Shown here: positions 5,188-8,525 of the stretch, piece by piece | Numbering within the stretch: position 1 is the first letter of the stretch | Layout of the letters: each line of letters starts with the position of its first letter | Assembly: GCA_963751455.1 (NCBI GenBank) | Contig: CAVVUN010000015.1 | Location: forward strand, 480,001 to 544,000 | Direction of reading: 5' to 3' | Origin: Nitrospirota bacterium | GTDB lineage: Bacteria > Nitrospirota > UBA9217 | Length of the DNA stretch: 64,000 bases | Program-made: the position numbers and the translations under genes | Notes under the pieces: generated by a model | What the model was told of the DNA's origin: nothing | What the model saw: only the letters and a program-made list of their open reading frames with translations | Databases searched by the model: none

Positions 5188-6284
5188 ATGGGTTTTAACT
5201 GCGGTATTGTGGGTCTGCCGAATGTCGGAAAGTCCACCATCTTCAACGCTCTCACCTCGGCCGGCGCACAGGCATCCAATTATCCCTTCACCACGATAGA
5301 TCCCAATGTCGGCGTGGTTGACATGCCGGACGAGCGTCTCGACAAACTGGCTGAAATCTACAAGCCGAAAAAAGTGACCCCGACTACCATGGAATTCGTG
5401 GACATTGCGGGTCTCGTGAAGGGAGCAGCGCAGGGAGAAGGGTCTGGGGAACAAATTCCTGGCGAACATAAGAGAAGTCGATGCGATTGCTCACGTCGTC
5501 CGCTGTTTTGAGGATCCCGAACGTGATTCATGTTGCAGGCAAGGTGGACCCGCAATCCGATATCGAAGTAATCGAAGCCGAGTTAATGCTGGCCGATCTT
5601 GATGCAATCGAAAAACGGCTCTTCAAGGCCGAGAAACTGGTTAAGACCGGAGACAAAAAAACAGCCGATGAAGTGCAGTTTATGAAGCGCCTCAAGGAGA
5701 TGCTGAGCAAAGGGGAGCCGATTCGCCGCGCAACGCATTCCGAAGAAGAAACAGGCTGGCTCAGGAGCTACAGTCTCCTTTCGGCCAAACCCGTGCTGTA
5801 TGTAGCGAACGTTGCGGAGGATATGGTGGATAAACCGAATTCGCACGTCGATGCGGTAAGAAAGATCGCTTCAGGGGAGGGCGCGAAAGTCGTGGTCATA
5901 TCCGGCCAGGTAGAGGGAGAGATCGCTCAGCTGCCCCAGGATGAGCGGAAAGAATATCTTGCCGGAATGGGTCTCAAGGAGTCGGGACTCGATCGCATGA
6001 TCCGGGCAGGCTATGAGCTGCTCGGCTTGATTACGTATCTAACAGCCGGAGAGAAGGAAGTGCGAGCGTGGACCATTACGAAAGGAACTAAGGCGCCTCA
6101 GGCAGCAGGAAAAATTCATACAGACTTCGAAAAGGGTTTCATCCGTGCGGAAGTGTTCCATTATAACGATCTCATGAGGCTGGGCACCGAGCAGGCAGTA
6201 AAGGCGGCCGGGCTTCTCCGATCCGAGGGCAAGGAGTACGTGGTTGCGGACGGAGACATCATGCTCTTCCGGTTTAATGTTTGA
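5188..6284 (+). CDS. ychF: Redox-regulated ATPase YchF, interrupted by two apparent +1 frameshifts (about 5441 and 5517)
   Basis: [16 protein letters not shown] and DIAGLV in one frame; [16 protein letters not shown] in a second; the TGS C-terminus [19 protein letters not shown] in a third. Confidence 0.9.
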
Positions 6285-6341: not shown

Positions 6342-6821
6342 TTACGCTTTGGGCGCGTAGACCACTTTGCGGAGAGCGTACTTATTGACGTAGCAGATAT
6401 TATCGCCGACTTTGACTATGAGGAAATGATAAGGCAGATTGAGGCAGTCCGACAGTCTTCCTTTTTCAGCAGGCACCTCGGCCATGAGCAAGCCGCTGAT
6501 AGAGCCGTCGTCAATGAAGATGGCCTTGATGCTTATGCTCTGCATGAGGCTGAGCGCTGCTGTTAGTTCCTCGTCCGCTCCGTAGTTTGCCTCAATCATC
6601 CGGATATTCCGTTTACGGATAAATTCAGTGCCCCCGCGCTCCTTCAAGGTGAGGGGGAAAAACATGGTTTCGTCTTCGAGAAACGATACTACCTTATGAT
6701 GAATGGTATGTGCGCCGGGGGCGGATTCGAGAAAAATGGAGCCCTCAACAGAGACTGCCGCTTCGAGGTAAACCGTTACATTTTGCTTGTCCTTGGGTAC
6801 GGCGAAACCCTCGTTGCTCAT
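6342..6821 (-). CDS. Hypothetical protein with an internal duplication, Hfq/Sm-like (DUF6812-like)
   Basis: Two similar halves (VTVYL...EGSI...FIRKRNI and IKAIF...SGLL...RLSDCLN...YVNKYAL); GGGGA RBS. Confidence 0.75.
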   Translation of the reverse strand: MSNEGFAVPKDKQNVTVYLEAAVSVEGSIFLESAPGAHTIHHKVVSFLEDETMFFPLTLKERGGTEFIRKRNIRMIEANYGADEELTAALSLMQSISIKAIFIDDGSISGLLMAEVPAEKGRLSDCLNLPYHFLIVKVGDNICYVNKYALRKVVYAPKA

Positions 6822-6947
6822 TATCCCATCCCCTTAAATCTGAAACATTCGGTAACGCAAAAAATTGATAAAAAAATCCCGAATCTGAGTCACATTTAAT
6901 TATTCTTACCTGCGCCAACCGCGTTCATCTGTGTCCACCCGCTTTTT

Positions 6948-8525
6948 TCATGCTTCCATCATGCCGCTCGTGAGGTTCAGGATTATGTTCTTGCTCTTGA
7001 GCAGGTTGATGAAGCCGGACTTATCGATGGCCTTTATATAGGCCTCTTCAGGCGCCACCACTTTATCCACAACCAGCTTGAACAAGGCATCGTTCAAAAG
7101 CATCATGCCCTGACCCTTGGCGGTTTGCATGATGGAAGGGATTTGGAATATTTTGCCTTCTCTGATGAGGTTTGAAACCGCGCTGTTCACGAACAGGATT
7201 TCCATCGCGGCCACCCTTCCTTTGCCGATCTTCTTGCAGAGGGACTGTGCAATCACGCCCTTGAGCGAACTCGCGACCATAGTCCTGATCTGGGCTTGCC
7301 GGTCAGCCGGAAACTGGTCGATAATGCGGTCAACAGTCGATGCCGCGGTGGAGGTATGAAGCGTTCCGAAAACGAGGTGGCCTGTCTCCGCTGTTTCGAT
7401 CGCTATGGAAATAGTTTCCAAGTCGCGCATTTCGCCGACCAGAACAATGTCCGGATCTTCGCGGAGCGCCGCCCTGAGGGCGTTGCTGAAGGACTTTGTA
7501 TGGACGTGGACCTCTCGCTGGTTGATGAGGCAGCTTTTTCTCGAATGTACGAACTCGATCGGGTCTTCAATGGTGATGATGTGGTCCTTGCGGTTGCGGT
7601 TGATGTAGTCAATGAGCGCGCAGAGAGTAGTCGACTTGCCCGATCCTGTCGGCCCGGTGACCAGGACGAGGCCTTTGCTCAGAAAACAAAGATCGAGCAC
7701 TTCTTTTGACAGTCCCAGTTTCTCCGCTGTCACGATCTCCATCGGGATCTGGCGGAAAACGCCGCCCATGCCGAACCGGTCCATGAATACATTCGCCCGG
7801 AATCGGGCAACGCCCACAATCTCGTGCGCGAAGTCCGTATCATGCAGTTCTTCGAATTGGGCTGCATTGTGCTCCGGGATAATGGCGCCAAGCAGCTTTC
7901 TCATTTTGTCAGGGTTGATTACCGCATGATCGGGTAGATCGATCATGTCGCCATGAAGCCTGATGAGAGGTTTATGATTCGACGTGAGGTGAAGGTCAGA
8001 TGCGCCCATGCTGAACATTTTTCGAAGGAGCGCATTGATCTCGGGTTCCTTGCCGCCTGCGGCTGCCGGCATCGCCTTCGGTGCAGCGGCGACAGGAACT
8101 GCCCGCTTCGGGGGCGGCGCGGCTTCTTCGACAGGGTCGGGTTCCAGGACCTCTACCTCTTCTTGCTCCGGTTCCTGAACCTGTTCCTCGACCGCTTCCT
8201 GGACCCGTTCCTGCTCCAATCCCTCTATTTTATCGGCCAAGGAGATAACAGTCCGTACCTGCTCGCCCTGTACCATAAAAGAGACGGTATAGCTTTTACC
8301 GTTGTAAGGGTATTCAAAGTTGGTGACGCGCCTGGCGGCGATACTTGCCTTGTCCGCTCCGGTTGCGATTTCATTCAGGAGTGAGATAATCTGCGGGGTC
8401 AGCAACTTCTGATTCACCATGATCCGCGCGCCCGAAGGCGTTCTCAACATCGGTTCTTTCCCGGTCTCGAGAAATATCTCCTGCTCAGGCTGCAATCGTT
8501 CAATCAACTTATCGAGCTGGCCCAT
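6948..8525 (-). CDS. pilT: Type IV pilus retraction ATPase PilT with an N-terminal extension
   Basis: ASDLHL, GPTGSGKST, TIEDPIE, LREDPDIVLVGEMRD, TGHLVFGTLH, NLIRE motif. Confidence 0.93.
   Translation of the reverse strand: MGQLDKLIERLQPEQEIFLETGKEPMLRTPSGARIMVNQKLLTPQIISLLNEIATGADKASIAARRVTNFEYPYNGKSYTVSFMVQGEQVRTVISLADKIEGLEQERVQEAVEEQVQEPEQEEVEVLEPDPVEEAAPPPKRAVPVAAAPKAMPAAAGGKEPEINALLRKMFSMGASDLHLTSNHKPLIRLHGDMIDLPDHAVINPDKMRKLLGAIIPEHNAAQFEELHDTDFAHEIVGVARFRANVFMDRFGMGGVFRQIPMEIVTAEKLGLSKEVLDLCFLSKGLVLVTGPTGSGKSTTLCALIDYINRNRKDHIITIEDPIEFVHSRKSCLINQREVHVHTKSFSNALRAALREDPDIVLVGEMRDLETISIAIETAETGHLVFGTLHTSTAASTVDRIIDQFPADRQAQIRTMVASSLKGVIAQSLCKKIGKGRVAAMEILFVNSAVSNLIREGKIFQIPSIMQTAKGQGMMLLNDALFKLVVDKVVAPEEAYIKAIDKSGFINLLKSKNIILNLTSGMMEA

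Follow-up and report, generated by a model that had tools for sequence, protein, structure and literature searches.

We report a gene pair that is real and apparently undescribed: in the window (the whole stretch of 64,000 nucleotides that was analysed), a small gene encoding a two-repeat protein lies directly behind pilT, and its tandem relatives travel with one clade of secondary PilT proteins. The protein, predicted to fold into two barrels, probably serves PilT as an accessory subunit, docking on its core to adjust retraction. One secondary PilT clade thereby gains a conserved partner gene, and tandem DUF6812 proteins gain a first functional lead. In the literature searched, which lay outside subscription journals, we found no account of a tandem DUF6812/PilT pair and no use of the term DUF6812.

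The gene pair and the DUF6812-type family

The tandem gene occupies positions 6342..6821 on the reverse strand. It is an open reading frame of 159 codons with an ATG start, and it is a real gene; a Shine-Dalgarno-like AAGGGG, recognised by eye in the sequence, lies 8 nt 5' of the ATG (6830..6835, reverse strand). The original prediction had described a protein of two similar halves with pilT 126 bp upstream on the same strand, and the ORF coordinates agree with this arrangement. Within the protein (P0001), HHalign and the structural model place repeat 1 at residues 11-79 (6585..6791) and repeat 2 at residues 94-155 (6357..6542). Its motifs are VTVYLEAAVSVEGSI at residues 15-29, FIRKRNIRMI at 67-76 and YVNKYALRKV at 144-153. 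HHalign aligned the two halves with a probability of 83% (E 8.8e-6, 59 columns). HMM comparisons across halves had a median score of 5.7 bits, whereas shuffled or reversed halves gave -0.6 to -1.4; scores above 10 bits were reached by 10 and 13 of 121 real halves and by 0/121 in each control. Judged from their sequences, the halves are homologous and alike beyond chance, and the claim of an internal repeat stands.

A word-indexed search with the single protein returned 31 close relatives (identity 44-93%), and the same kind of search with profile A1 returned 177. A full profile scan reached 1,028 clusters at E <=1e-10 and 1,736 at 1e-3; the best 150 clusters listed are mostly 150-170 aa long. 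Matches to the Pfam family DUF6812 (PF20660) were found in 119 of 138 diverse members at E <=0.01 (best 3.6e-13) and in 99 of 121 close members. P0001 alone scores 12.3 bits, below the cut-off of 27.1; one tandem relative scores above it (34.4 bits), and the nearest atlas cluster carries DUF6812. By these profile matches P0001 is a tandem DUF6812-type protein, in a family of more than 1,000 clusters, and it differs from the Pfam entry, a family label with no function attached, in being a two-repeat form. Most frequent among the phyla of atlas look-alikes, which serve as leads only, are Myxococcota, Acidobacteriota and Gemmatimonadota. R122 and D125 are the only residues without variation in the 138 diverse members, and N128 is kept in 99%; these residues form R122-x-x-D125-x-x-N128 (6438..6458, reverse strand) on the helix inserted in repeat 2. 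The residues conserved at >=90% are N128, F133, F54, G110, P56 and F30.

Other resources returned little. NCBIfam had no match for P0001, and cluster look-ups gave only "hypothetical protein" names, with a taxon attached to 2 of the 20 clusters. A sequence search of solved structures gave no rows with P0001 or A2 and a best E of 0.5 with A4, hence no credible relative. Three queries had no match among plasmids, and viral contigs had none either. Within the wider family, one protein (P0226, 507 aa), read by eye, carries in a single chain five whole DUF6812-type repeats and a sixth of which just the tail is present, a number compatible with six-membered rings in that family. In two genomes, at loci that have no pilT nearby, a pair of single-domain DUF6812-type genes lie close to each other (L166:5550-6433, L168:5407-5960), possibly an unfused form of the tandem.

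The linked pilT (6948..8525, reverse strand) encodes a protein of 525 aa (P0002) that scores 440 bits against TIGR01420 (cut-off 319), and its closest solved relative is 3jvu (E 4e-105). In the alignment, the core (residues 161-525; 6948..8045) has intact Walker A, Asp box, Walker B and His box. The PilT motif AIRNLIRE reads AVSNLIRE in P0002. The genome has another PilT, 48% identical to P0002, in a pilB-pilT-pilC cluster whose neighbours were recognised by eye; P0002, outside that cluster, is therefore a secondary paralogue. Residues 1-98 (8232..8525, reverse strand) form an extra N-domain without a Pfam match, which HHalign aligns with PilT's own N-domain (97.4%, E 1.3e-11) as a degenerate duplicate lacking the RFR arginines. 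The duplicate is joined to the rest of the protein via a long acidic, Pro/Ala-rich linker, and is kept across the window's family (f1) and in genome G668 of the second phylum surveyed. The PilT of G759 has a similar N-terminal extension (L153, with L147, is among the loci with the N-domain subclade).

A promoter and terminator scan placed no terminator-like site in the interval that separates the two genes of the pair. Its counts (promoter-like sites 4 against 1.8 +/- 1.5 in shuffles; terminator-like sites 1 against 3.6 +/- 1.7) say little, and no RNA holder was listed. Beyond the tandem gene, a frameshift divides ychF (5188-6284, forward strand) into two ORFs, 5188-5511 and 5481-6284; in a relative (L060) it is a single frame of 364 aa, and the split in the window is possibly an assembly error.

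Linkage to pilT in two phyla

All 35 matches to the tandem gene in the window's phylum, found in 34 of 301 genomes, abut pilT. A deeper profile added no further genome among the 301. A separate set of 26 loci, all abutting pilT, overlaps the 34 genomes and was not counted again. In two genomes of other families the gene is tied to a PilT without the extra domain, in one case with the gene upstream. Among the 63 genomes of f1, 31 have the gene together with the N-extended PilT, 27 have neither and none has the gene alone. The remaining five retain only the N-domain of PilT: two are relics without the ATPase core (G087 and G158), in one (G236) pilT is broken and truncated, with ychF directly after it, and two are contig ends. 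Gene and PilT are thus present and lost jointly in f1. These are natural deletions of the module: in G087 and G158 just a relic of the first 46-69 pilT codons is left behind the NMO gene (L059:4464-4601, L060:3096-3296), and the broken pilT of G236 is at L061:500-1578. NMO and ychF were considered as members of the module and rejected, as these neighbours vary among loci. In a further genome (G227, L064:1116-2659) pilT is frameshifted in several places and the tandem gene downstream is intact; this assembly may be error-prone.

The second phylum (that of G303), which we infer to be Desulfobacterota in the broad sense, was surveyed in 401 genomes and gave 58 places: 35 tandem copies and 23 single-domain or partial matches. 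Nineteen of the 35 tandem copies abut pilT (one convergent, one upstream), and another ten lie in a pilT cluster with genes between, namely an MshEN/receiver/DUF4388 region in eight and PilU-like plus zinc-ribbon genes in two. The other six have no pilT in the fetched flanks. The single-domain or partial matches had pilT in 0/23 cases, with flanks of ~5 kb or to the contig end, so that the link is confined to the two-repeat form (29/35 against 0/23). In a replicate set restricted to deeper-profile finds, 12 of 13 tandem copies were linked. A survey of gene neighbourhoods, proposed together with the original prediction, thus yielded a conserved pilT link in both phyla (35/35 and 29/35). The link holds with the tandem gene downstream, upstream (G287, G759) or convergent (G465), behind the MshEN/receiver/DUF4388 region, and behind the PilU-like and zinc-ribbon genes. 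Adjacent pairs are tightly spaced, with a median gap of 12 bp; 40 of 42 gaps are <=30 bp and 11 of 42 pairs overlap. The 126 bp of the window is unusually long for the family.

The loci are kin, and these counts therefore overstate independence; in addition, adjacent genes can go in one deletion without sharing a function. The survey covers two phyla, and most of the family (the look-alikes of Myxococcota, Acidobacteriota and Gemmatimonadota) lies outside them.

In trees of 41 and 52 rows, which include a subset of the f1 rows and were midpoint-rooted for drawing, all linked PilTs form one clade apart from the PilT of the pilB-pilT-pilC cluster (values 100/99 and 99). Pairwise identities of PilT and of the tandem protein correlate over 53 rows (Spearman 0.70; 0.31 outside f1), a correlation that shared ancestry alone could explain. 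G668 carries both genes, and in the trees both group inside the window's kin, which suggests, from sequence, a joint transfer. Mutual information between the two proteins over the 53 paired rows did not rise above the control (top z 8.8, against 7.5-9.3 with kin swapped).

The partnership has exceptions on both sides. Four orphan genomes (G495, G402, G367 and G326) have no clade PilT genome-wide, their best matches being 46-47% identical and in the canonical clade; these genomes may be incomplete. A fifth (G448) has its clade PilT on another contig, and G672 is the sixth. Conversely, a clade PilT occurs in five genomes of G403's order where the surrounding 1.5 kb contain no tandem gene; four of these PilTs were checked and lie downstream of an MshEN gene. 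Profile A3 matched 0/151 genomes of that order. Because tandem copies occur as orphans and clade PilTs occur without the gene, the partnership is strong but not obligate in either direction.

The original prediction had hinted at the extra N-domain of PilT as the docking site. This is unsupported, because most linked PilTs outside f1 do not have the domain and because the domain merely duplicates, in degenerate form, the regular N-domain of PilT; for the same absence it was rejected as a required partner.

The protein whose gene separates the pair in one lineage has 670-690 aa and combines MshEN, receiver and DUF4388 domains, as checked with Pfam in four loci (among the copies are L098:7276-9303, L101:4548-6605 and L156:3505-5580). 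MshEN domains bind c-di-GMP. The recurrence of MshEN and receiver neighbours suggests that the pair could belong to a signal-controlled retraction module. It also bears on an alternative in which the tandem protein acts in the same pathway as PilT and binds another factor (the MshEN/receiver/DUF4388 protein, the platform protein or a further factor of the pilus base), the operon only co-ordinating expression. The eight tandem loci with that region between the two genes would fit such a role, as would the four orphan copies without a detected clade PilT and the clade PilTs that lack a tandem gene. However, pilT is the only constant neighbour in most loci, and the window locus has no adjoining MshEN gene. 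We consider this alternative unlikely and favour binding to PilT itself.

Predicted fold and comparison with Hfq

AlphaFold2, run on the deep alignment, gave a confident model (pLDDT 92.4, pTM 0.86). Each half is predicted to consist of b1, b2, a helix, b3, b4 and b5, with a coil at residues 1-10, a linker helix at 84-91, and the helices between b2 and b3 at 40-49 in repeat 1 and 123-127 in repeat 2. Both predicted halves thus have the bent, antiparallel five-stranded small barrel of Sm/LSm proteins. Repeat 2, the half that superposes best on Hfq, fits the Hfq cores 6gwk, 2qtx and 1kq1 with an rmsd of 1.6-1.9 Å over 48-51 residues, though with Z of only 3.7-3.9. A wide structural search returned mostly Hfq, Sm and LSm in its top 50 rows, all with Z <5; the top row was YaeO/Rof (Z 4.6), and the C-terminal barrel of BirA (Z 3.8) ties with Hfq. 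Foldseek gave no match at E <=0.001, and its Hfq rows (probability 0.97-1.0, E 0.03-0.1) stood among Tudor and other folds. Given these weak Z and Foldseek values and the tie with BirA, the fold of P0001 is by prediction a small barrel of the Sm type, and descent from Hfq is plausible. The check by AlphaFold and Foldseek that had been suggested at the outset therefore succeeded in its first part, with Sm-type barrels in the model, and not in its second.

Covariation in the alignment (366 sequences, effective 260) showed a weak b5-b4' register (78-142, z 3.1; 77-143, z 2.6), and pairing between the repeats through these strands is weakly favoured. For ring closure there was no clear ladder (z <=2.6).

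In canonical Hfq a helix precedes b1 at the N-terminus, and the barrel itself contains none. The model of P0001, by contrast, has no helix before repeat 1 and has one inserted between b2 and b3; its linker helix (84-91) stands ahead of repeat 2 and is not part of the best superpositions on Hfq. The likeness to Hfq, Sm and LSm proteins is in the predicted five-stranded barrel, whereas P0001 has two barrels per chain and ~10% identity. The Hfq family PF17209 has no match in P0001. YKH is the RNA-binding pore motif of Hfq, according to the available text of PMC3439903. [YF]KH occurs in neither repeat in any of the 138 diverse members, where the consensus is N-K/R-x, and the family is acidic (median pI 5.4; below 6 in 108 of 138 members). 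The genome's canonical Hfq is a separate gene elsewhere (G000:C6:18408-18593, E 2e-31), for which reason P0001 was rejected as the genome's own Hfq. P0001 is not an Hfq, because it lacks YKH, belongs to an acidic family, has an inserted helix and coexists with a canonical Hfq. The initial reading as a tandem Hfq/Sm-like protein survives as regards the predicted Sm-like fold of both halves, backed by AlphaFold2 and the structural search, and fails as regards Hfq.

The same observations bear on a second alternative, that of an Hfq-like nucleic-acid chaperone ring linking retraction to RNA regulation or DNA uptake. Consistent with it are the Sm-like predicted fold, weak Pfam Hfq matches in 7 of 121 close and 2 of 138 diverse members (best E 0.0026), a brief Sm1-like stretch that aligns with the genome's Hfq (HHalign 55%, 21 columns), and a K or R after the Asn in b4 in about 76-81% of members. 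Yet the missing [YF]KH, the acidic pI, the inserted helix and the canonical Hfq already in the genome all argue against it, and none of the constant neighbours stood out as a competence gene in a survey not aimed at such genes. The nucleic-acid-binding role first proposed is unsupported, because YKH is absent in 138/138 members of an acidic family, and we regard a chaperone ring as improbable. In addition to its canonical Hfq, the genome carries a pair of further Hfq-family genes next to each other (G000:C1, about 435400-436300). The first (L182:1198-1680, 160 aa) matches Hfq strongly in its C-terminal part and weakly in its N-terminal part and is a true tandem Hfq, and the second (L182:1689-2093, 134 aa) has one Hfq domain and a long tail.

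A possible role at the retraction motor

The accessory subunit that we favour would work as follows. The gene and pilT would be co-translated, as the tight spacing of adjacent pairs suggests. The two-repeat protein, with its two predicted Hfq/Sm-like barrels, would bind protein rather than act as an RNA chaperone, and would dock on the ATPase core of PilT, not on the extra N-domain, with the invariant R-x-x-D-x-x-N helix as the likely contact surface. Once bound, it would tune when or how the motor retracts pili, in a role that is regulatory rather than essential. That the linkage is instead an accident, an unrelated small gene hitch-hiking with pilT in an inherited or transferred block, is very improbable: the loci are kin, single deletions remove both genes (G087, G158 and G236) and orphans exist, but the link still holds at about 20% identity between partners and under five gene arrangements in two phyla while the other neighbours all change, and single-domain matches are unlinked.

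A bolder version of the accessory subunit is conceivable, though we hold it doubtful: three two-barrel copies might form a pseudo-hexameric Sm ring that caps a PilT3-type hexamer, selects among its states and relays MshEN/receiver signals. PilT hexamers adopt states described as C2, C3 and C6 in the available text of PMC6858323, and a trimeric pseudo-hexamer would match the C3 state. If true, a family of more than 1,000 clusters would supply a retraction ATPase with a dedicated regulator encoded in its own operon, and the Sm fold would have been recruited to pilus motors a second time, independently.

The nearest precedent is cyanobacterial, and it had been correctly cited when the protein was first noticed: Hfq binds the pilus motor PilB and is unlikely to bind RNA there, according to the available text of PMC12288463. 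Both systems tie an Sm-fold protein (predicted, in our case) to a type IV pilus motor ATPase, the cyanobacterial one being Hfq-PilB(-EbsA). The two also differ: in cyanobacteria a true Hfq sits on a C-terminal extension of the extension motor PilB (PMC12288463, available text), whereas the protein described here belongs to a separate tandem family encoded beside a retraction-type PilT, which it would bind. With PilT as the linked ATPase and a small protein that is not Hfq, our pair falls outside the Hfq-PilB system. The comparison suggests that Sm barrels may more widely serve pilus motors as protein adaptors, the Hfq-PilB oddity being one case.

Geobacter sulfurreducens offers a likeness on the side of the ATPase. 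In the available text of PMC5065972, its PilT3 (GSU0436) powered retraction in P. aeruginosa, and in Geobacter itself only the loss of PilT4 gave a non-retraction phenotype. Like PilT3, the five clade PilTs of G403's order are secondary and downstream of an mshE-like gene, and they nest in the linked clade; the putative assignment to the PilT3 type is by gene arrangement, and four of the upstream genes carry MshEN. Unlike the linked loci, these Geobacter-like genomes keep the PilT without a detectable tandem gene. The hypothetical gene beside Geobacter pilT2 (GSU0231) had a single metagenome match, which was unrelated. In Myxococcus, the paralogues MXAN_0415 and MXAN_6706 give partial motility defects on a basis described as unknown in the available text of PMC13584747. 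Among the control genomes, PF20660 scored above its cut-off in Thermus thermophilus, a tractable organism.
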